A stretch of DNA of 64,000 bases from Patescibacteria group bacterium (GTDB lineage: Bacteria; Patescibacteriota; Minisyncoccia; Phycocordibacterales; JAACPR01). The stretch is taken from contig JAKLEX010000001.1 in the NCBI GenBank assembly GCA_022711495.1, positions 87,058 to 151,057 on the forward strand. Reading direction: 5' to 3'. The translations under genes and the position numbers were made by a program. The notes under the pieces were generated by a model, which made no database searches, had not been told where the DNA came from, and was given only the letters and a program-made list of their open reading frames with translations. Below are positions 1 through 38,168 of the stretch, one piece after another (position 1 is the stretch's first letter; every line of letters begins with the position of its first letter).

Positions 1-811
1 AGTTAGCGACATCACCGAACGGTCGGTTCGCGACTTTCGCCTTTGGCTTAACCGACAAAACGCCACTAAAAATATTAACGGCCGTCTGACCGCCGGCACA
101 ATCAAGAAACGGACGCAGAATTATTACCTGATTGCTTTGCGTTCTTTCTTAAAGTTTCTTCTTAAAAAAGGATATAAGGTTCTGGCGCCCGATCAAATTG
201 AGTTAGCTAAAGTTCCCGAGCGGTCAATTGATTTGATTACTGCCGAAGAACTTAGACGAATCATGGACGGCCCAAGGGGTTCCGATGTAAAGAATCTGCG
301 CGACAAGGCTGTTCTAGAGTTGCTATTTTCAACTGGTTTGCGAGTTTCAGAATTATGCGCCCTGGACAGGGATCTTGATTTAAGCCGCGGCGAATTTGCT
401 ATCCGTGGGAAAGGCGAAAAAGTTCGAGTTGTTTTTATTTCCGAATCAGCCAAGAAAGCGCTGAACGAATATCTGGAAAAGCGCGACGACATGGATGAGG
501 CCATGTTTGTTCAAGTCGCCGGCAAGGGCGGTAAAGATTTGTTAAAAAAGCGTGAATCAATTCGATTGACCCCCCGTTCGGTTGAGAGGATTGTTCGATT
601 TTACGCCACTAAGGCCGGTATCTCTAAAAAAGTTACTCCGCACATCATCCGGCATTCTTTCGCCACTGATTTATTGTCAAACGGCGCTGATTTGCGCTCG
701 GTACAAGCTCTTCTCGGCCACGCCAACATTACAACGACACAGGTTTACACGCACGTTACGGACAGGCACCTAAAAGAAATTCATAAAAAATTTCACGACA
801 AGAACTCTTAG
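1..811 (+). CDS. Site-specific tyrosine recombinase, XerC/XerD family; the N-terminus runs past the window start (the frame is open from nt 2)
   Basis: C-terminal catalytic motifs HIIRHSFATDLL...LLGHANITTTQVYTHV; the frame stays open upstream of the listed Met to the window edge. Confidence 0.8.
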   Translation, partial: VSDITERSVRDFRLWLNRQNATKNINGRLTAGTIKKRTQNYYLIALRSFLKFLLKKGYKVLAPDQIELAKVPERSIDLITAEELRRIMDGPRGSDVKNLRDKAVLELLFSTGLRVSELCALDRDLDLSRGEFAIRGKGEKVRVVFISESAKKALNEYLEKRDDMDEAMFVQVAGKGGKDLLKKRESIRLTPRSVERIVRFYATKAGISKKVTPHIIRHSFATDLLSNGADLRSVQALLGHANITTTQVYTHVTDRHLKEIHKKFHDKNS

Positions 812-907: not shown

Positions 908-1300
908 TTAACGACTGCCAACGCGGCGAGGCCGCGCAAGGCTTGCGGCGATACGCTTCACCTCCTCGTCGCACACGAACTGATTCCTGGCGACGACCAC
1001 GGCATCCCTACCGTGGTTCAAATATCTGACGCAGATGTTGCCTTCATGGTAGCAACTTGCGCCGAGACGGACCATCCTGTCTTCCGCGAGTCTCCGTAGC
1101 TCACGGTCTTCGTCCGTTTTTCCGATACGGACGCGGTCTACCCCTCCTTCCGCTTTTCCTCCCTTGACCCGCTCAATCATGCGATTGAGGCATCGGGCTC
1201 CAAGCGGAAACTCTTCGCATCTGGCGAAAAAGACTTCAATCGCCCGATGCTCATGGTTCCCTTGGACTCCAGGTCTCCTTGCTCCCATCACCAATGTCAT
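908..1300 (-). CDS. Hypothetical protein (130 aa) in a GC-rich island
   Basis: Open frame with protein-like composition, convergent with xer and ending at the bidirectional terminator; GC is clearly higher than the flanks; no family recognised. Confidence 0.3.
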   Translation of the reverse strand: MTLVMGARRPGVQGNHEHRAIEVFFARCEEFPLGARCLNRMIERVKGGKAEGGVDRVRIGKTDEDRELRRLAEDRMVRLGASCYHEGNICVRYLNHGRDAVVVARNQFVCDEEVKRIAASLARPRRVGSR

Positions 1301-2556: not shown

Positions 2557-4026
2557 CTATTTTACGCCTCTCTTTCGCCTTATTTTAGTAATTTCAGCCT
2601 TTTCTACTTCGGTTTTGACTTCCCTGGCCGCTTCGCCGATTCCTTTAAGTTCGCCGTCTGGCAGTTTTAGTAATTCCGCAGTGTGTTTCACGAGAAACTT
2701 TTTATTGTTTCTGGTTGGATCTTCTAGGACTTCTTCCAGTAAAGCGCTCAAAACATAGCCGATCCTCGGTCCCGGTTCCACGTGAAACTCTTTGATTATG
2801 TCGTTACCATCAATTTTTAACATAGAAACAGAAATCGGATCCCTGATAACTTCTTCAATCATTGATTGGAATTTTCGTAACCTGTAGGGCTCTTCTTTTG
2901 GTCTGCCGGTACCCACCCTGTCGCATATGCGCAAATTGACTAGCTCCCAGATATTTTCTTTAGAGACTTTATTGATGAGTCTTCTCACTGCTGAAGGGGT
3001 AATCTGTTCTGTGTCCGAGAAGAACATGTGGCATCTGATCAGTTTCTCAACTTTCTCTATAACTTCTTTAGGAAAGGCCAGTTTTCTAAGTGTTTCACGT
3101 GCAACCTTGGCGCCCACGACCTCATGCCCGTAGAAAGTAGTTTTGCCGTCTTCTTGTCTTTTAGTTGCTGGTTTGGCCGAATCATGAAATAAGGCGGCCA
3201 GGCGGACTTCCAGCGAGAAGTTCTTATCAGCCGCGTGTTGCAGGGCTCTCAAGGAATGTTCCCAAACATCATATTTATGAGCTTCTTTATTTTGAGAGAC
3301 TCCGACCATTTCTTCTAACTCTGGTAAAGTGTGGCTTAAAATATGAAGTTTTTGAGCTAGTGCCAAGCCCATGGCCGGATTTTTTGATTGGATAATCTTT
3401 TTAAATTCTTCTCCGATTCTTTCATTTGAAATGTGTCCGATAAGGCCAGCGTTTTTAGAGATTGATTCGGCAGTTTCTTTTTCAATTACAAAATCAAGTT
3501 CGGCGGCAAATCTGACCGCTCGCAGCATTCTTAGAGCGTCTTCGCCAAAACGCTTATCAGGGCTTCCTACGGCTCTAATTAGGCGTTTTTCTAGGTCGGA
3601 TAGACCACTATAATTATCAGTAATTTGTCCTTTATCCGGGTCAACAGCTAGCGCATTGATGGTGAAATCTCTTCTGCCCAAATCATCGTCCAATTTATGG
3701 CTGAAAATAACGCTATCCGGGTGTCTTTTATCGGAATAGCCCGCTTCCTTTCTGTATGGAGTTATCTCCACGACTTTTAATGCCGGATCGTCCGAACCGC
3801 TTTTCACGCCGACGGTTCCGAAAGTGTTTTCATAAAATGAGTCTGGAAAGAGGCCCTGTATTTTTTCCGGCGTGGCGTTGGTGGCGATGTCCCAGTCTTT
3901 GGGTTTGTTACCGAGCAAAATATCCCTGACACAGCCGCCGACCACGAAGACTTCAAAACCGCCCGCTTTCATCTTTTGAGAGATATTCAAAATTTCTTTT
4001 GGAAATGAATTTGTCTTGATTTTCAC
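2557..4026 (-). CDS. cca: CCA-adding tRNA nucleotidyltransferase / poly(A) polymerase family with a C-terminal HD domain
   Basis: GGCVRDILLG...DWDIAT nucleotidyltransferase head; RRDFTINAL; HD motif HD...K; GTG start. Confidence 0.8.
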   Translation of the reverse strand: MKIKTNSFPKEILNISQKMKAGGFEVFVVGGCVRDILLGNKPKDWDIATNATPEKIQGLFPDSFYENTFGTVGVKSGSDDPALKVVEITPYRKEAGYSDKRHPDSVIFSHKLDDDLGRRDFTINALAVDPDKGQITDNYSGLSDLEKRLIRAVGSPDKRFGEDALRMLRAVRFAAELDFVIEKETAESISKNAGLIGHISNERIGEEFKKIIQSKNPAMGLALAQKLHILSHTLPELEEMVGVSQNKEAHKYDVWEHSLRALQHAADKNFSLEVRLAALFHDSAKPATKRQEDGKTTFYGHEVVGAKVARETLRKLAFPKEVIEKVEKLIRCHMFFSDTEQITPSAVRRLINKVSKENIWELVNLRICDRVGTGRPKEEPYRLRKFQSMIEEVIRDPISVSMLKIDGNDIIKEFHVEPGPRIGYVLSALLEEVLEDPTRNNKKFLVKHTAELLKLPDGELKGIGEAAREVKTEVEKAEITKIRRKRGVK

Positions 4027-4085
4027 GGATTTATTCTAGCCCAATTTTGATTTTTGGCCAATTTATCGTATCATTTTCTTTGTCT

Positions 4086-4158
4086 GCGCCCGTGGTGAAA
4101 TGGATATCACAACGGTCTTCGGAACCGTCGTTGTGGGTTCGAGTCCTGCCGGGCGCGC
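4086..4158 (+). tRNA. tRNA-Arg (anticodon TCG)
   Basis: Cloverleaf: acceptor GCGCCCG/CGGGCGC, D-arm GTGA/TCAC, anticodon stem ACGGT/ACCGT with loop CTTCGGA, T-loop TTCGAGT; no encoded CCA. Confidence 0.8.
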
Positions 4159-4233
4159 AGGCTGTTTTTAAGGAACTGGCTGTTTTTAGAATATTGCTGA
4201 ATTAGGAAGATTAAAAGATAATAAAAATAAGAC

Positions 4234-4464
4234 ATGTTAGAAAAAGTTAGAAGTTTCTTAAGGTTGCATCCGAATTTAGACCTTATTTTAAGCGGTATTT
4301 CGCTTGTTTATATCTGGCGCGGAGTTTGGAGTTTAACCGATATGTTTACCTTTGGCACGTTTCAGCGCGGAGCTTTCTGGTCTTATCTGATCCCGCTTGT
4401 TATTGCCTTTGCTTACATATACTTGAACGACTACAGATTGAAAGAATTAATCCATACTGATTAA
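4234..4464 (+). CDS. Hypothetical small membrane protein (76 aa)
   Basis: ATG ORF between two tRNA genes, with two hydrophobic segments. Confidence 0.3.
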   Translation: MLEKVRSFLRLHPNLDLILSGISLVYIWRGVWSLTDMFTFGTFQRGAFWSYLIPLVIAFAYIYLNDYRLKELIHTD

Positions 4465-4554
4465 TTGAGCCTGTCTATGTCGCAAAAAGGCGGCCCGAGC
4501 ACGCGTCCTCTATTGAATTTTATTTAGAACATATTATACTTTAGGGCACGTTTT

Positions 4555-4625
4555 GCGAGTATGGTTTAGTGGTAGAATGCGTCCTTGCCAAGGACGAGAC
4601 GGGAGTCCGATTCTCCCTACTCGCA
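4555..4625 (+). tRNA. tRNA-Gly (anticodon GCC)
   Basis: Acceptor GCGAGTA/TACTCGC, anticodon stem CGTCC/GGACG with loop TTGCCAA, T-arm GGGAG-TCCGATT-CTCCC. Confidence 0.8.
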
Positions 4626-4782
4626 CAAAAAGTTGCTATTAATAATTGTTACGGATTGCTGCGAATCGCCGCGAGCAGACCCGGATACTTTATAAGGACA
4701 AACTGATTTTGTAAAATAGTGTCCGATATAAAACCTTGAAAATCAAGGCGATTTAAACGACTGGGGATAACTATGTGGATAT

Positions 4783-5349
4783 GTGTATATAAGACATGTC
4801 TTTTTGATTTTTATGCTATTGACGGGGGCTATAGATAAGGTTGTTTTCATTATGTTTCATGAAAAACGTTTCACGTGGAACATCTCCACATTAATTTTAG
4901 GTAAAGCTTATATTTTATTTATTTTCTTGTGCCATATTTTGGAAATACCAAGCAAAATAAGGATAAAAGGGAATTTTGGCGAAGATATAGCAGTTAGGTT
5001 TCTCGTGAAACAGGGCTTTAGAATTTTAGCTCGTAATTATCTTAGACGGGCAGGTGAAATAGATATTATCGCCGAGCGGTTCGGGGAGATCCATTTTATT
5101 GAGGTTAAAAGCATATTTCTGAAAAATGTTTCCCGTGAAACGATTCGGGGCGGGGGATTAAATTACCGACCGGAAGAAAATGTGAGTCGTAAAAAAATAT
5201 TCAAGATGATCAAGGCGGCTGAACTTTTTCTGTTAGATAGGGGTCCGGGGGCTGCTGAGAAGGTACATTTTGATGTTATTGCTGAAGTCTTTGATTGTCA
5301 GGGAAAAATCTTGGGGTTCAGATATATAAAGGATGTAAATTGCGGATAG
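4783..5349 (+). CDS. YraN/UPF0102-family endonuclease-like protein with an N-terminal hydrophobic extension (predicted membrane anchor)
   Basis: C-terminal ~120 aa GEDIAVRFLVKQGFRILARNYLRRAGEIDIIAE...HFIEVKS...HFDVIAEVF matches the YraN fold; the N-terminal 60 aa carry 2 predicted TM helices; GTG start, so the true start is uncertain. Confidence 0.5.
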   Translation: MYIRHVFLIFMLLTGAIDKVVFIMFHEKRFTWNISTLILGKAYILFIFLCHILEIPSKIRIKGNFGEDIAVRFLVKQGFRILARNYLRRAGEIDIIAERFGEIHFIEVKSIFLKNVSRETIRGGGLNYRPEENVSRKKIFKMIKAAELFLLDRGPGAAEKVHFDVIAEVFDCQGKILGFRYIKDVNCG

Positions 5350-5384
5350 GTTGATCAAGGCAGGATTGAAAGTATATGTCACTA

Positions 5385-5412
5385 TTGACAGAGTTGTTAT
5401 ATCTGCTATAAT
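5385..5412 (+). promoter_or_regulatory. Sigma70-like promoter upstream of ORF 5474
   Basis: TTGACA-16 nt-TATAAT about 60 nt upstream of the start codon. Confidence 0.45.
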
Positions 5413-5473
5413 TAGAGGCAGAAGGATCTGGTAGGTTGGTACAGTCACAAATCAACGAGAAAAGGAGAAAAAC

Positions 5474-5884
5474 ATGAACGGTTCGAGGCGCGCGTCTTGG
5501 GTTCTTGCCATAGCGACATCAGTTGGTTTTTTAGCCGCTTTGATTGTGGCCAGCAGGGTCCACGAAGAATCTGTCGCCACGATCGCCACTCTGGAGACAT
5601 CGGTCGGATCCTATACTGAACCGAATACCGGAGTCCTGTACAGGGTTACGGCGGTTGACGATCAATGTGGCCTGATGATTCTGGCCGTTCCGTGGTCGTC
5701 TTTGCCGGGGGGAATCGATCTGGCGGGTCGGCGGTTCTTTCAATCAAACAATGCCAATCTCAAGACCGGTGCTTGGTTTATTCGTGAGTCGAATGGTCGA
5801 GATGTGGTAGTTATCCGGCCGAATCCACCGCCGAATTTGCAGAAAATCTCATATTCAGGTGAGGTGAATCTGTTGTTAGATTGA
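5474..5884 (+). CDS. Hypothetical secreted or membrane-anchored protein (136 aa), GC-rich
   Basis: N-terminal signal or anchor WVLAIATSVGFLAALIVA; an RBS-like GGAGAAAAAC precedes the ATG; strong upstream promoter; GC above the surroundings. Confidence 0.4.
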   Translation: MNGSRRASWVLAIATSVGFLAALIVASRVHEESVATIATLETSVGSYTEPNTGVLYRVTAVDDQCGLMILAVPWSSLPGGIDLAGRRFFQSNNANLKTGAWFIRESNGRDVVVIRPNPPPNLQKISYSGEVNLLLD

Positions 5885-5978
5885 TACCCCATCGGCGTAA
5901 GAAGACTTGGTGCCCTCGTAGATCTGAAAACAATCTTTTCAAATTTATGGGGGCTTTTCTTTTTTGCAATGTTTAAGT

Positions 5979-6054
5979 TGGTCGGAGCGCAGGGATTCGA
6001 ACCCTGAGTCATCTGCTCCCAAAGCAGACATGTTAGCCGTTACACCACGCTCCG
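5979..6054 (-). tRNA. tRNA-Pro (anticodon TGG), with encoded CCA
   Basis: Reverse complement gives acceptor CGGAGCG/CGCTCCG, anticodon stem TCTGC/GCAGA with loop TTTGGGA, T-loop TTCGAAT and a 3' ACCA. Confidence 0.8.
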
Positions 6055-6146
6055 TTATGCTTCCAAAATCTTACACAAAAAATGGCAAGATATCAAATGG
6101 GGTGGTAGATTGTGTTTATTAATAAATATAAATCGCGCGCAACAAA

Positions 6147-6449
6147 ATGTTTGGAAAACTTTTCCAAAAAAAGAAAGAAGACTTTATCTGTGAAAAATGC
6201 GGATTTCAAAATCAGGGTGACGGCTACACCAATCATTGTCAGAAATGTCTGTGGTCAAAACATGTTGATGTGAACCCGGGCGATCGCGCCGAATCTTGTC
6301 GGGGCTTGATGAAGCCGGTTGATTTAGTAAACGAAGGCGGAGTTTTTTATATTCTTCATCGCTGCGTAAAATGCGGCGCGGAAAAGAGAAACAAAGCTCA
6401 AAAAGGCGACGATTTTAAGGAACTTATAAATTTAAGTCGTAAATATTAA
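6147..6449 (+). CDS. RNHCP-like zinc-ribbon domain protein
   Basis: CEKCGF...GYTNHCQKCLWSKHVDV...HRCVKCG: two CxxC pairs with the NHC-x-C-LWSKHVD signature typical of RNHCP-domain proteins. Confidence 0.45.
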   Translation: MFGKLFQKKKEDFICEKCGFQNQGDGYTNHCQKCLWSKHVDVNPGDRAESCRGLMKPVDLVNEGGVFYILHRCVKCGAEKRNKAQKGDDFKELINLSRKY

Positions 6450-7681
6450 ATCTCTCTCAATAGTAGCTTGGCCAAATCTTCCGTATAGACGTCTTTAAAT
6501 TCTGCCGCGCGCGATTTTAAATTGCCGCCAATAAAATAACTCAAACTTTTTCCTGTCTCGTCTTTTATATCTCTCTCAATATACGAAAGCGTGATGCCGT
6601 TGATTTTGGCTTTTCCGTCACTGCCGTCCGTTGTGGCAATTACTCCGATCAAATCAACGGACTCTTCGTCCAAGCCGTAAAATATTCCACCGCCGGAAGC
6701 GCCTTGTGCGCCGACTTCAGATTTGGAAGTGGTGATGACGTCCGCACGATTGCCGCCGAAAGTGAAAATATCCAATATAGAAACTGCTGCCATTCTTAAC
6801 CTTCCGGCGTGGCCGAGATCTAACAAACTTTTCGGACCGCCCGGATAACCGGCCACGATGACGTTATCGTTTTTATCAAGTTCTTGAGCCGCGTCCGGAT
6901 TCGCGCTAGGGAACGTCTCTGGTATTCCGAGAGCCGAGTTGGTGTTTCCGGTTATTAATATTAAAGCGTAGTCATCTTCTCCCGTGCCGCGGGCGTTGTT
7001 ATTGGCGATTAGTTCATAATTTTGTTCAATCCATTTTGGCGAAACGTAAATCGGTTGGCCCTTGTATCCGTAGGTTGGAATATTCTCTTTGTACATGGCG
7101 CAATTTATGAGATCAGGATCGTAACTTTCAAGCACAAAAAATTGCGCGACATGGGCGTTAGTCAATACGACGCCTCTTGGCGAGACGATAATTCCGCTAC
7201 CGGTGGAAACATTCACATAATTACCATGAGTGTAAGTGCAAATGATATTGACCACGACATCTTCAACCGTGGCAATTTGAGCCTCTGCCGTTGGAGGAGT
7301 TATAGGCTCTGGGGTGATTGGAGCAGCTGGTTCTAGTGGTGCGGTCGATTCTGGAGGAACTGGTGGCACGGGCGGTGCAATTGGTGCGGCAGGAGATTCT
7401 GTCGTTGGCGGTGCCGGCGCTATCGGCGGCGCGGACGGAGGCTTGGTTTCTTTTTCGGGCACGACTTTCTCAAGGGTTTCAGCGATTTGTTTGGTGCTGT
7501 TTTCAGTTTCTAGTTTGTTCTGTCTTTCAATCAAATCGGCCACGGCTTCTCTGCGGATTTCTTCAACACGAACAGCTTCCGGCGATGGTATGTTGACTTG
7601 CGGCGCGATTCCTAAAAAAGCCAATATGGAATAAGCGAACAGCAAAACTCTTTGCAAGATTATTCTAAGCAAAAACGGCAT
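6446..7681 (-). CDS. Secreted trypsin-like serine protease (S1 family) with an N-terminal anchor and a Pro-rich linker
   Basis: Catalytic triad contexts TNAHV (His), DYALILI (Asp), GASGGGIF (Ser); N-terminal hydrophobic segment; linker PPSAPPIAPAPPTTESPAAPIAPPVPPVPP. Confidence 0.7.
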   Translation of the reverse strand: MPFLLRIILQRVLLFAYSILAFLGIAPQVNIPSPEAVRVEEIRREAVADLIERQNKLETENSTKQIAETLEKVVPEKETKPPSAPPIAPAPPTTESPAAPIAPPVPPVPPESTAPLEPAAPITPEPITPPTAEAQIATVEDVVVNIICTYTHGNYVNVSTGSGIIVSPRGVVLTNAHVAQFFVLESYDPDLINCAMYKENIPTYGYKGQPIYVSPKWIEQNYELIANNNARGTGEDDYALILITGNTNSALGIPETFPSANPDAAQELDKNDNVIVAGYPGGPKSLLDLGHAGRLRMAAVSILDIFTFGGNRADVITTSKSEVGAQGASGGGIFYGLDEESVDLIGVIATTDGSDGKAKINGITLSYIERDIKDETGKSLSYFIGGNLKSRAAEFKDVYTEDLAKLLLREI

Positions 7682-32312: not shown

Positions 32313-32338
32313 GACTAAACAAAAACTCCAGAGCTTTA

Positions 32339-32407
32339 TTCGATCCAGTCCTCGTTTCCTTTCTCTGTCAATTTTCATTTGACAGAGAAAGACTGCGGGG
32401 GACCTCA
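32339..32407. repeat. Left copy of a ~68-nt inverted-repeat pair flanking tuf; contains an internal perfect 13-bp hairpin
   Basis: TTCGATCCAGTCCTCGTTTCCTTTCTCTGTCAATTTTCATTTGACAGAGAAAGACTGCGGGGGACCTC; its reverse complement matches 33950-34018 at about 90% identity. Confidence 0.8.
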
Positions 32408-32543
32408 AAAGCTCCGGAGTTTTTGTGTTTAGGTGAGGCTGCGCAAAGTCGACCGAGAGTAACGGCCCTGCTCGCTGGAGGGAGGAACGCGCGTCTCTAG
32501 GAAGTGTTTCTGGGGGTTCTATGTTTGTTTAGTCTTAACCCAT

Positions 32544-32573
32544 TGACACACTTTCTCGTTTTGTTACTATAAT
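32544..32573 (+). promoter_or_regulatory. Near-consensus sigma70-like promoter for tuf
   Basis: TTGACA-18 nt-TATAAT located about 125 nt upstream of the tuf ATG, inside the inverted-repeat-bounded segment. Confidence 0.5.
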
Positions 32574-32700
32574 TCTTACACAAAAGGGGCGCTTTTTGTT
32601 TGCGCCGCATATTGTGGGGACTATTTTTTACAAGACCGCTCTCGCGCTTTTGTAAGAGATAATCTTTTTATTAGGAGGTATTAATTACAAATAAATTATT

Positions 32701-33891: not shown

Positions 33892-33949
33892 CCGATTAAG
33901 CTCTTTTCAAAGATAGGTTATTCCGTTTAGTTCGCAACAATTAGTTTTT

Positions 33950-34018
33950 GAGATCCCCCCGCAGTCTTTTTCTGTCAAATGAAAATTGACAGAAAAAGGA
34001 GACGAGGATTGGATCGAA
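33950..34018. repeat. Right copy of the inverted-repeat pair flanking tuf
   Basis: GAGATCCCCCCGCAGTCTTTTTCTGTCAAATGAAAATTGACAGAAAAAGGAGACGAGGATTGGATCGAA; same internal hairpin TCTGTCAA-(7 nt)-TTGACAGA. Confidence 0.8.
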
Positions 34019-34081
34019 AAAACTGAATTGTGGAGAACTAAACGGAACCACTAGCTTTTGGAGAGATAATCAACTTCAAAT

Positions 34082-36300: not shown

Positions 36301-37149
36301 ATGAAAAAGTATAGACCAACAACACCGAGTCGTCGACAAATGTCTACCATAGAGTTTAAGGGGATTTTGACTACGAACAAACCTCAGAAATCTTTGACTT
36401 GGGGTCGTAAAAGAGCCGTCGGCCGCGGTTCCGCCGGAAATTTGACTACTCCGCACAAGGGCGGCGGGGTTAAGAGACTTTTCCGTCAAATTGATTTTGT
36501 CTATAACAAAAAAGATATCCCGGCCAAAATTGCCTCTGTTGAATATGATCCAAATAGATCGGGCTTTATTGGTCTAATAAACTACGCTGACGGAGAAAAG
36601 AGATACATCCTTTTGCCTCGTGGCGTTAATGTCGGTGACACGATTATGGTTAGTGAAAACGCGCCGATAAAACCGGGCAACCGCTTGCCTCTTTCTAAAA
36701 TTCCAGTCGGTACTTTTGTCTACAATGTTGAAAGCAGAGTTGGCAAAGGCGCCGTCATGGCTCGTTCAGCCGGAAACTACGCGCAGATTATCGCTCAAGA
36801 TTCTGGCATGACTCATTTAAGGATGCCTTCGGCCGAAGTGCGAAAGATTAGCGGAAACGCATGGGCTTCCGTTGGAGAAGTCTCAAATCCGGATTACAGA
36901 TTGCAGAATATCGGTAAGGCTGGCAGGAATAGAAAAAGAGGTGTACGCCCAACTGTTCGTGGTACAGCCATGAACCCGGTTGATCACCCACACGGTGGTG
37001 GTGAGGGACGACAGGGTATTTCTTTGAGACTTGGCCCAAAAACACGACAAGGCAGACAGGCCTATGGCGTCAAAACTCGCCGACCGAAAAAGTACTCCAA
37101 TATCTTTATCGTTGAAAAGAGGAAAAATAAGAGAAATACTCCTAAGTAA
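36301..37149 (+). CDS. rplB: 50S ribosomal protein L2
   Basis: GRNxxGxIT-like core: ...VRGTAMNPVDHPHGGGEGRQGI... Confidence 0.95.
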   Translation: MKKYRPTTPSRRQMSTIEFKGILTTNKPQKSLTWGRKRAVGRGSAGNLTTPHKGGGVKRLFRQIDFVYNKKDIPAKIASVEYDPNRSGFIGLINYADGEKRYILLPRGVNVGDTIMVSENAPIKPGNRLPLSKIPVGTFVYNVESRVGKGAVMARSAGNYAQIIAQDSGMTHLRMPSAEVRKISGNAWASVGEVSNPDYRLQNIGKAGRNRKRGVRPTVRGTAMNPVDHPHGGGEGRQGISLRLGPKTRQGRQAYGVKTRRPKKYSNIFIVEKRKNKRNTPK

Positions 37150-37178
37150 AATAAAAGCCAGCGACGGGTGTCGCTGGC
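37150..37178 (-). terminator. Intrinsic terminator for the antisense coiled-coil gene
   Basis: CCAGCGAC-GGGT-GTCGCTGG hairpin; on the minus strand it is followed by CTTTTATTTTAC; no T-run follows on the plus strand. Confidence 0.55.
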
Positions 37179-37202
37179 GATGGGTCGGGGTCAGAAGGTT
37201 CT

Positions 37203-37469
37203 TCAGTTGGGAAGGCGCGAGTCGATCATTTCGCGGAATTCGTCCCTGACTGCTTCCGCTCGCGCGAGCTTAAGCTCGAGCTCCTTGATCCTGTTGTTGG
37301 CACTGACCAACATGATCTTGGAATCACGGCCCCCTTCGCGTTCCGTGGACAAATCCTCCCGCAAAATGGCGAAGGACTGGTCTTGCTTTTTCAACTCTTC
37401 CTCGAGCCGCGCGTTCTTGGCCAACAGCTCTCGTATCCGTGCCTTATCCGATTTTTTCTTCTGTGCCAT
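37203..37469 (-). CDS. Hypothetical coiled-coil protein (about 88 aa from the MAQKKK start) encoded antisense between rplB and rpsS; GC-rich
   Basis: Strong SD (GGAGAG within AAGGAAGGTGGAGAG) 4-10 nt upstream of ATG GCA CAG; heptad-like RIRELLAKNARLEEELKKQD...IKELELKLARAEAVRDEFREMI; own downstream terminator; the ORF-track start at 37556 is probably an overextension. Confidence 0.45.
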   Translation of the reverse strand: MAQKKKSDKARIRELLAKNARLEEELKKQDQSFAILREDLSTEREGGRDSKIMLVSANNRIKELELKLARAEAVRDEFREMIDSRLPN

Positions 37470-37679
37470 CTCTCCACCTTCCTTCCTGTGTTTAATGTGC
37501 ACTTCGCTCTCGTGGCGAATTATTGGTGATGATATCACGCCTTTAAAATATGTCAATGTTTTGGTGATTTATACAATCTCCCCCGACATTGTTTTTACCA
37601 GATTAAATTCGCTACCGCGGCCTTTTCTTTATCTAATCTTTATCTAAATTTTCGTCGAACCAAACCCGCCTTTTAATCC

Positions 37680-37707
37680 TTGACTATTTTCTGTGCTTTG
37701 CTAGTAT
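37680..37707 (+). promoter_or_regulatory. Sigma70-like promoter that would restart transcription for rpsS and the downstream S10/spc genes
   Basis: TTGACT-16 nt-TAGTAT about 110 nt upstream of rpsS; preceded by the tandem direct repeat CTTTATCTAAT / CTTTATCTAAA. Confidence 0.4.
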
Positions 37708-37814
37708 GTTGCTTACTGCAAATTGATGTGTTTTTGAGGAGAAAGACACTGAACGCTTGAGGCGATGATAGTCTCACGGCCAATTTGGTGGATTTTGCGG
37801 TCGTCTTAATTTTT

Positions 37815-38168
37815 ATGACAAGATCACTTAAAAAAGGTCCTTACGTGGACGAAAAACTTTTGAAAAAAATCGCCGGTAAAAAGCCAGTTCAAGCTGGTCC
37901 TATTAAGACTTGGGCGCGCCGAAGTCAAATATCACCGGAAATGGTTGGATTTACCTTCGCTGTGCACAATGGAAAGTCTTTTACGGATGTATTAGTCGCC
38001 GAGGAAATGGTTGGACACCGACTCGGCGAATTTTCTTTTACGAAGAAGTTCACCCGACACGGAGGTAAAATGCAAAAAGAGCTTGAACAAGCCAAACGAG
38101 AAGCCGAAATTTCAGCTGCCAAAGCTGCTAAACCGGTTGAAGCTAAAGCTCCAGACGCTAAAAAATAA
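37815..38168 (+). CDS. rpsS: 30S ribosomal protein S19 with a Lys/Ala-rich C-terminal tail
   Basis: [19 protein letters not shown]...[37 protein letters not shown]; the extra ~30 aa tail is [16 protein letters not shown]; the ORF-track start at 37785 is an overextension. Confidence 0.9.

Follow-up and report, generated by a model that had tools for sequence, protein, structure and literature searches.

Few gene arrangements in bacteria are as conserved as the S10 cluster. In E. coli the S10 operon (rpsJ-rplCDWB-rpsS-rplV-rpsC-rplP-rpmC-rpsQ) is expressed as a single transcript, under regulation by L4 at the S10 leader. The comparative genomics of horizontal gene transfer has established the general concept of the chromosomal integration hotspot, a variable islet with conserved core genes on either side. 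The defence-island hotspots of E. coli are an example (PMC10121019). Within the S10 cluster itself, a candidate L2 r-leader has been described in Alphaproteobacteria upstream of rplB-rpsS-rplV-rpsC (PMC7247131). We searched the literature and found no report of a split or a hotspot between rplB and rpsS in Patescibacteria.

We analysed a 64-kb window (the whole stretch of DNA under study, 64,000 nt) from a Patescibacteria genome. rplB, encoding ribosomal protein L2 (36301..37149, plus strand; Pfam Ribosomal_L2_N 3.2e-29 and Ribosomal_L2_C 7.7e-47), is the final gene of an upstream unit, rpsJ-rplC-rplD-rplW-rplB, with its stop codon ending at 37149. rpsS, encoding S19 (37815..38168, plus strand; Pfam Ribosomal_S19 1.2e-31), leads the downstream unit rpsS-rplV-rpsC-rplP and onward; with the ATG at 37815, its N-terminal residues align with those of relatives. 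Gene order is that of the canonical S10 operon, and the other junctions measure at most about 20 nt, with the exception of tuf|rpsJ and rpsJ|rplC. In a canonical contiguous operon, rplB and rpsS are neighbours, as a rule with less than 100 nt and no gene or promoter between them, whereas here 665 nt separate them. The spacer holds a convergent, apparently foreign ORF that has a promoter and a terminator to itself, followed by a separate rpsS promoter and leader. The 88-aa protein of this ORF was identical on 11 contigs, and the DNA was 100% identical in the four that we fetched (two JGI metagenomes, NCBI GCA_035454325.1 and Logan SRR5007150). An assembly artefact was ruled out because independent assemblies carry the identical segment.

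The separation proved to be a property of the clade. In 18 of 18 relatives (L2 identity at least 58%) the rplB|rpsS gap measured 164-2574 nt, and the separation is common to 19/19 clade genomes; of 64 more distant bacteria, 62 had gaps no longer than 146 nt. When 11 junctions were compared, L2|S19 alone was consistently enlarged. In the loci that we inspected, the adjacent rplL|tuf and tuf|rpsJ spacers were free of cargo. Unrelated cargo was present in 14 of the 18 rplB|rpsS gaps and four gaps were empty, among them that of the closest relative (L085, L2 88% identical), whose 244-nt gap lacks the 88-aa gene. The cargo included MazEF, DUF5674, a diacylglycerol kinase (DAGK_prokar), Radical_SAM and orphans, mostly co-oriented with the ribosomal protein genes. 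One gap (L006) held MazE and PemK, and in L008 a MazE and ParE-like pair lay directly downstream of rplB, with rpsS off that contig. Comparison across genomes detected no similarity among the cargo proteins, or between any of them and the 88-aa protein. The initial annotation had proposed that an inserted gene split the S10 operon; this order of events is not tenable, as the gap is ancestral and measures at least 164 nt in every relative.

The same holds for the promoter of the downstream unit. A TG-extended promoter, TTGACT-16-TAGTAT, lies upstream of rpsS at 37680..37707 on the plus strand, as first noted and as found by the promoter scan. Conservation starts here: similarity to relatives picks up exactly at the -35 box (37679/37680). 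The -35 and -10 columns were invariant in five genomes, and a TTGAC-N16/17-TAnnAT motif was found upstream of rpsS in 19/19 clade genomes. The suggestion that the host gained a restart promoter in response to the insertion therefore fails, since the motif is present in all 18 relatives, the four with empty gaps included. Because homology resumes at the -35 box and continues through a conserved leader, the rpsS promoter is older than the insertion. This ancestral promoter would drive rpsS and the genes downstream of it, so the insertion need not disturb expression of the ribosomal proteins.

The leader itself covers about 107 nt (37708..37814, plus strand; alignment and RNAalifold), with a mean column identity of 87% in five genomes. 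Promoter and leader together were 76-81% identical between genomes, compared with 42-51% at third codon positions of rplB and 42-54% upstream of the -35 box; the leader thus has the character of a conserved non-coding 5' UTR of a ribosomal protein operon. A multi-stem structure was predicted, with P1 ACUGCAAA/UUUGCGGU, P2 GUGUUUUU/AAGACAC and P3 UGAGGC/GUCUCA. RNAalifold placed 27 pairs, most of them invariant and two with compensatory changes (five sequences only), and the single-sequence fold gave z = -1.33. A model of the leader (R2) matched upstream of rpsS only. Rfam gave no match to the leader, either across the whole window or in a permissive search of the gap, and was empty on the loci of four relatives. 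Model R2 did not match L104 or L105, where by eye just the first ~30 nt resemble the leader. A first leader pattern found nothing in a metagenome collection that evidently holds no close relatives, and a second pattern returned 14 unrelated loci from the same collection, all without the leader.

Upstream of this conserved block the sequence is of a different kind. In pairwise blastn against the spacers of the four closest relatives, matches were confined to the 3' end of rplB and to the stretch from 37679 on, leaving a segment at 37150..37678 (no strand assigned) that is unique to this genome and has no detectable similarity to those spacers. The GC-rich patch reported between the L2 stop and S19 was confirmed: a 300-nt window at 37151 has a GC content of 0.567 against a mean of 0.430 (sd 0.041) for the 64-kb window, the window at 37150 (0.563) ranks fourth of 1274, and GC is 0.54 across 37200-37399. 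Codon usage points the same way. GC at the three codon positions of the 88-aa ORF is 0.56/0.34/0.72, with GC3 of 0.34-0.54 in host genes, and its mean ln RSCU, -0.152, falls below the host minimum of -0.022 (34 host genes define both ranges). The gene is missing from L085, L087, L088 and L089. A gene that departs from the host in composition and codon usage, and that close relatives lack, is what horizontal acquisition is expected to leave, and the description of a small foreign gene stands.

We found that the foreign segment carries a complete set of expression signals on the minus strand. The ORF (37203..37469, minus strand; ORF list and composition) encodes 88 residues, MAQKKKSDKARIRELL...SRLPN, starting MAQKKK. 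Directly before its ATG lies a purine-rich Shine-Dalgarno-like tract, AGGAAGGAAGGTGGAGAG (37470..37487, minus strand). The promoter scan also detected a promoter of its own, absent from the initial annotation: TTGACA-16-TATCAT at 37529..37556 (minus strand), with an extended -10 TG and 11 of 12 positions matched. It is one of only three sites with at least 11/12 matches on both strands of the 64 kb. The other two likewise precede GC-rich orphan ORFs and are correctly placed. At the far end, the terminator scan and the minus-strand sequence show an intrinsic terminator (37147..37178, minus strand), in which a hairpin at 37178..37157, GCCAGCGAC-ACCC-GTCGCTGGC (nine pairs, seven of them G-C, with a 4-nt loop), is followed by TTTTATTTTA. 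The T-run, which overlaps the stop codon of rplB, is found on the minus strand only, as the first reading had it; inspection of the plus strand showed none after the rplB-proximal hairpin. Without a U-tract on the plus strand, read-through from rplB into the antisense of the 88-aa gene is possible, and the two ribosomal protein units may be incompletely separate in this genome. The predicted minus-strand transcript runs from ~37522 to 37148, upstream of the rpsS promoter. Promoter, ribosome-binding site, coding-type ORF and terminator follow one another in the order of an independent protein-coding transcription unit.

The protein itself has no recognisable relatives. A word-indexed search of 5.8 billion clustered proteins and a full HMMER search of 1.84 billion representatives each returned only the protein itself. 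Pfam, PHROGs, PADLOC, NCBIfam and PDB sequences gave no family, and matches below the curated cut-offs were those of a generic coiled coil; tblastn against phages gave no match. AlphaFold2, run with single-sequence input, modelled helices at residues 3-43 and 49-83 with a mean pLDDT of 80.9, and the protein is predicted to form an amphipathic, two-helix antiparallel (coiled-coil) hairpin. Foldseek of this model against the PDB found generic helical hairpins only (E at least 2), and no function was drawn from these matches. Small helical-hairpin proteins such as the FadA adhesin (2gl2/3etz), SSV1 D-63 (1skv) and the designed 5j0k likewise consist of two long helices that run antiparallel, with a short loop between them; at 10-24% identity and E of at least 2 this is generic topology, with no sign of homology or shared function. 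The slot in this genome also differs from the toxin-antitoxin modules seen elsewhere. A type II module consists of two adjacent co-oriented genes with known domains, and this gap holds a single credible ORF and, according to Pfam, NCBIfam and PADLOC, no toxin-antitoxin domain.

In relatives, a ~110-nt palindromic element forming a long hairpin, flanked by an A-run and a T-run, is found at the rplB-proximal end of the gap. It occurs in either orientation and also follows rplL and tuf in the window. Its core is asymmetric and conserved, and its outer stem covaries, with 19 of 42 pairs compensatory. This genome has a simple 9-bp hairpin in its place, and a model of the element (R1, default filters) found no copy in the gap at E up to 10. 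A degenerate copy that had been suspected at 37600-37680 was dropped on the same negative result. The 11-nt tandem repeat noted initially is present as two perfect copies of TCTTTATCTAA (37626..37647, no strand assigned; TRF score 44, 100% matches) and sits between the two divergent promoters. The find_repeats search recovered it too, as family D2.

These observations lead us to the view that the 88-aa ORF is probably a real, recently acquired and independently transcribed passenger gene in a pre-existing inter-operon spacer. Under this proposal, a Paceibacteria-like clade of Patescibacteria would keep its S10 cluster as two units, rpsJ to rplB and rpsS onward, with the 3' end of the spacer formed by a conserved sigma-70-type promoter and the 5' leader of rpsS. 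The remainder of the spacer would serve as a variable cargo slot, holding nothing, toxin-antitoxin pairs, small enzymes, membrane proteins or orphans, and in this genome a GC-rich foreign segment would have filled it. The 88-aa gene would be transcribed convergently to rplB from its near-consensus promoter, translated from the ATG behind the Shine-Dalgarno-like tract and terminated by the hairpin and U-run at the rplB stop codon. We infer promoter activity, synthesis of the protein and a place for the gene among accessory passengers, as opposed to ribosome-related factors.

The ORF might instead be fortuitous, the patch being a non-coding remnant of foreign DNA with chance matches to a promoter and a Shine-Dalgarno tract. 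ORF length by itself is not significant, since 12% of spacer shuffles contain 117 or more codons in a row without a stop, and the case for a gene therefore rests on the combined signals. The protein is a strict orphan, a longer ORF (159 aa) overlaps it on the plus strand, and chance would be expected to yield about 1.6 promoter matches of at least 11/12 in 64 kb. We nevertheless consider a chance frame unlikely: promoter, Shine-Dalgarno-like tract, ATG, stop codon and terminator are correctly ordered and spaced, all three of the best promoter matches in the window stand correctly upstream of GC-rich orphan ORFs, and one sequence sufficed for a confident AlphaFold2 model of two amphipathic helices. 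Only on the minus strand does GC by codon position follow the pattern usual for coding sequence; the ORF that overlaps on the plus strand would show the atypical order of GC1 below GC2. Transcription rather than translation could also be what matters here, with the convergent promoter insulating the two ribosomal protein units by interference, or with the transcript acting as antisense to rplB read-through and the ORF being secondary. The minus-strand transcript may have a role at the RNA level: it folds somewhat better than shuffles (z = -2.48), its near-consensus promoter faces rplB, read-through is plausible past a plus-strand hairpin that lacks a U-tract, and the bidirectional palindromic terminator element that relatives have at this place is missing. 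Yet the predicted transcript, barring read-through of its terminator, stops at the stop codon of rplB, the only part of a ribosomal protein gene that it overlaps, and relatives cope with gaps that are empty or whose cargo is mostly co-oriented with the ribosomal protein genes. Coding periodicity and the Shine-Dalgarno-like tract in turn point to translation, and such an RNA-level unit seems to us rather improbable. The earlier idea of an antisense regulator of ribosomal protein expression finds little support for the same reason, as a cis-antisense RNA regulator would overlap the coding sequence or 5' UTR of its target and the predicted transcript covers no ribosomal protein coding sequence.

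Two further explanations tie the gene more closely to its site. The protein could be a ribosome-associated factor, which the initial annotation had also named and for which the analysis gave no support, or a small DNA-binding coiled coil that acts on the 11-nt repeat and tunes transcription of the rpsS operon. Its basic N-terminus followed by heptad-like helices would suit such a role, as would the perfect repeat between both promoters, and in L089 a similar doubled motif, TTTTAACTAA, occurs immediately upstream of the rpsS -35 box. Relatives, however, conserve the rpsS promoter and leader without any homologue of the protein and carry unrelated cargo in the same slot, no DNA-binding or ribosome-associated family was matched in Pfam, PHROGs, PADLOC, NCBIfam or the PDB, and the fold matches are generic hairpins with E above 1; we regard this role as very unlikely. 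The initial annotation had also considered a selfish element, that is, a discrete mobile unit (an insertion sequence, MITE, integron cassette or similar) targeting this site. Cargo turnover in the slot is high, other genomes have toxin-antitoxin modules in it, the cargo of L087 and L089 is bounded by two inverted copies of the ~110-nt palindromic element, and a gene of the Phage_integrase family is found elsewhere in the window (137-811). The gap itself has none of the signatures of such elements: it holds no transposase, integrase or relaxase and, as noted, no copy of the palindromic element, and 37150-37678 is not bordered by terminal inverted repeats or a target duplication. The segment has no second copy in the 64-kb window or in the phage and plasmid collections searched (blastn of the segment, in the case of plasmids), and we give this explanation very little weight.

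The passenger gene, our preferred reading, is in itself a modest result, another orphan whose expression signals are unusually clean. In practice, what matters most is that the causal order of an insertion followed by a restart promoter is reversed. In an ultra-small Patescibacteria clade, the S10 cluster would be stably broken at one junction, its downstream half having its own promoter and leader, and the gap would be filled repeatedly by unrelated accessory genes. If confirmed, this offers a defined and readily recognisable locus at which to track how streamlined, uncultivated genomes gain and lose genes, a natural test of how far ribosomal protein stoichiometry depends on co-transcription, and a candidate new rpsS leader RNA. 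A more ambitious combination, in which the spacer is a maintained cargo slot, the 88-aa protein a new ribosome- or transcription-linked factor and the rpsS leader a new autoregulatory class, is unlikely as a whole. Were it true, a terminator element on one side and the rpsS promoter on the other would insulate newly acquired genes, and read-through or convergent interference would couple their expression to the part of a tiny genome that is transcribed most heavily; the 88-aa protein could, for example, bind the 11-nt repeats beside the rpsS promoter.

Compared with known systems, the slot resembles an integration hotspot in being a fixed interval between core genes with varying content (toxin-antitoxin modules, orphans or nothing). 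It differs in lying inside the ribosomal protein supercluster, in the small size of its cargo (filled gaps of 0.5-2.6 kb with one to three genes) and in having no associated integrase, tRNA or att site. The palindromic element of the relatives is like extragenic palindromes and bidirectional terminators in its ~110-nt hairpin with flanking A- and T-runs, and unlike them in its conserved asymmetric core, its covarying outer stem and its occurrence in both orientations. The rpsS leader is like ribosomal protein leaders in that a conserved, apparently structured sequence, with conserved stems and variable loops, abuts a ribosomal protein gene inside the S10 cluster. It differs from the L2 r-leader of Alphaproteobacteria in preceding rpsS and not rplB. 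It is confined to a genus-level group, shows only two compensatory pairs and matches no Rfam family.

The L2 protein of the window carries the NCBI name 'Candidatus Paceibacterota bacterium', and its nearest GTDB genomes are Kaiserbacteria, Zambryskiibacteriota and Paceibacterota MAGs. Pfam confirmed both rplB (plus strand, ending at 37149) and rpsS (plus strand, starting at 37815). The 665-nt spacer between them is the sole large break in a tightly packed r-protein cluster; the remaining junctions from rplC to rplN are each 16 nt or shorter, and L16/S17 merely contains rpmC. Over its left ~350 nt the spacer is rich in GC (0.54-0.57; mean of the window 0.43, sd 0.041), which ranks this segment among the four most GC-rich of 1274 sliding windows.

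All elements described in the initial annotation were found in the window. On the minus strand, an 88-codon ORF (ATG at 37469, stop at 37205..37203) is preceded by a ~52-nt 5' UTR, with the purine tract AGGAAGGAAGGTGGAGAG listed between this UTR and the ATG in the 5' to 3' direction. The ORF is followed by a hairpin (GCCAGCGAC-ACCC-GTCGCTGGC, then TTTTATTTTA) that ends on the rplB stop codon. The initial annotation had overlooked the ORF's own promoter, TTGACA-16-TGaTATCAT (37556..37529, minus strand), which scores 11/12 against the consensus. Further right lie a perfect 11-nt repeat, TCTTTATCTAA x2 (37626-37647), and a plus-strand rpsS promoter, TTGACT-16-TAGTAT with a TG extension (37680-37707).

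We compared this junction in GTDB species representatives retrieved with L2, requiring both rplB and rpsS on the contig. All such genomes with L2 identity of at least 58% had a large gap (164-1104 nt), while the gap was 146 nt or less in 62/64 more distant bacteria, including other Patescibacteria (Uhrbacteria, Yanofskybacteria, Kerfeldbacteria and Buchananbacteria). Eight closer relatives, fetched via their L2 proteins (72-88% identical), had gaps of 244-2574 nt. Across 11 junctions in 19 genomes, L2/S19 was the only one always enlarged. The S10/L3 (rpsJ/rplC) junction was also enlarged in two genomes (~1031 nt in L010 and 908 nt in L014), and possibly marks a further, less frequent site of insertion in the r-protein cluster.

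The gap is empty in four relatives (L085, L088, L106 and L012). Elsewhere it holds MazE with PemK/MazF (L006), DUF5674 with an orphan (L010), diacylglycerol kinase (L016), a radical-SAM gene with two orphans (L105), a 215-aa membrane protein (L107) or orphans of 50-242 aa (L087, L089, L104, L007, L009, L013, L015 and L017). In L008 a MazE/AbrB and ParE-like pair lies just 3' of rplB, with rpsS not on the examined sequence. The same break is found in extreme form in L018 (Patescibacteria, L2 56% identical), where a 960-aa repeat-rich, surface-type ORF (3830-6822) directly follows rplB and rpsS is absent within 3 kb. No similarity was detected between any two cargo proteins. Cargo is mostly oriented like the r-protein genes, with an antisense minority comprising the window, L104 and L013.

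Pairwise comparison of the window spacer with those of L085, L087, L088 and L089 gave matches only in the last rplB codons and from 37679 onward. Homology thus resumes exactly at the -35 hexamer and extends over the -10 and a leader of ~107 nt as far as the ATG of rpsS. Promoter and leader are 76-81% identical between genomes, vs 42-51% and 60-70% at third codon positions of rplB and rpsS, respectively; identity over the 100 nt 5' of the -35 is at background level (42-54%). The 200 nt upstream of rpsS contain TTGAC(A/T/G/C)-N16/17-TA(G/A/T)nAT in 19/19 clade genomes, the four empty gaps included, and 11/19 carry the TG extension; single matches in such AT-rich DNA are not significant, and the evidence lies in their consistency across genomes. 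The initial annotation had read this 'restart promoter' as a response to the insertion. That order of events does not hold, because resumption of homology at the -35 and clade-wide recurrence of the motif indicate that the promoter is ancestral and that the operon was already split when the 88-aa gene arrived. Acquisition of the gene appears recent on the scale of the relatives compared, since the slot is empty in the closest of them, L085. Just upstream of the rpsS -35 in L089 (~5960-5995) the motif TTTTAACTAA(T/C) occurs twice, with a ~12-nt period. The pair resembles the window repeat, and L089 and the window may share an upstream promoter element here.

The leader (window 37708-37814; L085 4988-5099; L087 4255-4365; L088 5063-5172; L089 6027-6138) is conserved far above synonymous-site identity. 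RNAalifold of the five sequences predicted a closing stem (ACUGCAAA/UUUGCGGU), two inner hairpins (GUGUUUUU/AAGACAC and UGAGGC/GUCUCA) and a weak fourth stem; variation falls mostly in loops, with compensatory change in two pairs. All matches of a covariance model of the leader lay upstream of rpsS and within the genus-level group, and Rfam gave no match. The leader is likely to be cis-regulatory and is a candidate new r-protein leader. The survey of Eckert and Weinberg (PMC7247131) includes an L2 leader of Alphaproteobacteria within the S10 cluster, and has neither an rpsS leader nor any CPR leader. In the wider clade (L006-L017 and L104-L107) the rpsS 5' UTR is shorter. There its start, 30-140 nt upstream of rpsS, is typically formed by a small G+C hairpin and a subsequent U-run (e.g. 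GAGCTC-GTAG-AGAGCTTTTTT in L017), which may act as an attenuator or 5' stabiliser; these rpsS genes have no obvious Shine-Dalgarno sequence.

A ~110-nt palindromic element, a long hairpin flanked by A- and T-runs, was found 3' of rplB in L085, L088 and L089, with only a weak degenerate match at this position in L087 (15 bits, E 0.72). Its core (CAGTCCTCG ... GTCAA-N-TTGAC ... GACTGCGGAG) is conserved and asymmetric, and its outer stem covaries (19/42 pairs compensatory). Copies occur in either orientation 3' of rplL, tuf and rplB: in the window after rplL (32317-32431, plus) and tuf (33925-34040, minus), and in the relatives at L085 273-391 and 4855-4939, L088 1605-1719 and 4870-4985, L089 4856-4970 and 5850-5963, and L087 4107-4222. 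Two inverted copies bracket the cargo of L089; in L087 a clear copy follows the cargo and the weak match precedes it. The element looks like a bidirectional terminator or a REP-like element, with no Rfam match. None was found in the window's rplB-rpsS gap, where the foreign segment has taken its place and the simple hairpin is the inserted gene's terminator. A TTGACA-N17-TATAAT-type promoter (32544-32574) and a ~130-nt leader also lie upstream of tuf, preceded by a GC-rich stretch (32432-32500) between the rplL element and tuf.

The length of the 88-aa ORF is not significant by itself (117 stop-free codons were reached in 12% of shuffles), and a 159-aa plus-strand ORF overlaps it. The minus frame has GC1/GC2/GC3 of 0.56/0.34/0.72: GC1 exceeds GC2, as is normal, and the wobble position is strongly enriched in GC. 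The plus-strand frame has this wobble position in common with it but would give GC1 < GC2. Host GC3 is 0.34-0.54 (34 genes), and the mean ln RSCU of the ORF by the host table (-0.152) lies below the range of the host genes (-0.022 to 0.131). Codon-position GC, GC3 and RSCU together mark the segment as foreign in composition and, on the minus strand, as coding-like. We consider it unlikely that the frame is spurious within foreign non-coding DNA. Promoter matches of at least 11/12 number only three in the whole 64 kb on both strands, and all three stand correctly upstream of GC-rich ORFs without a Pfam match; chance alone would yield ~1.6 such sites, though not in this placement. The other two precede a 57% GC, 130-aa orphan (1300..908, minus; promoter at 1374) and a 52% GC orphan (5474-5884, plus; promoter at 5385), with no DNA similarity among these and the 88-aa gene. 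The 130-aa orphan is convergent with a Phage_integrase-family gene (137-811). Single-sequence AlphaFold2 predicted two helices in the 88-aa protein (residues 3-43 and 49-83; mean pLDDT 80.9); structural matches were generic hairpins only (E at least 2). Searches of 5.8 billion clustered proteins, and with HMMER of 1.84 billion representatives, returned only the protein itself, and no family matched in Pfam, PHROGs, PADLOC, NCBIfam or PDB. The identical protein was found on 11 contigs. Four retrieved loci from independent assemblies were 100% identical in DNA, which rules out an assembly artefact but also means that the ORF offers no variation informative about selection.

The 88-aa gene is probably an independently transcribed, horizontally acquired orphan, occupying a cargo slot that the clade shares between two r-protein transcription units; the second of these (rpsS) would rely on an ancestral promoter and leader for its expression. 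It is rather improbable that the convergent unit acts at the RNA level or by transcriptional interference. Folding of the ORF transcript is somewhat more stable than that of shuffled sequences (z = -2.48), and in the window no plus-strand U-tract terminator follows rplB, whose proximal hairpin has no T-run on that strand; an interplay of rplB read-through with the convergent promoter is possible on these grounds. We regard as very unlikely both a location-linked regulator or ribosome factor and a discrete mobile element; phage and plasmid searches gave no match.

Within the orphan-in-a-slot reading, the 88-aa gene taken alone is nothing unusual, a passenger whose signals are clean and whose product is uncharacterised. 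More notable are the break in the S10 cluster, which is clade-wide and repeatedly refilled, and the candidate leader of rpsS. The literature searched contained no description of an rplB-rpsS split or hotspot. The split, with its rpsS promoter, resembles known operon splitting with internal promoters, and the cargo slot between rplB and rpsS resembles known core-flanked variable islets.
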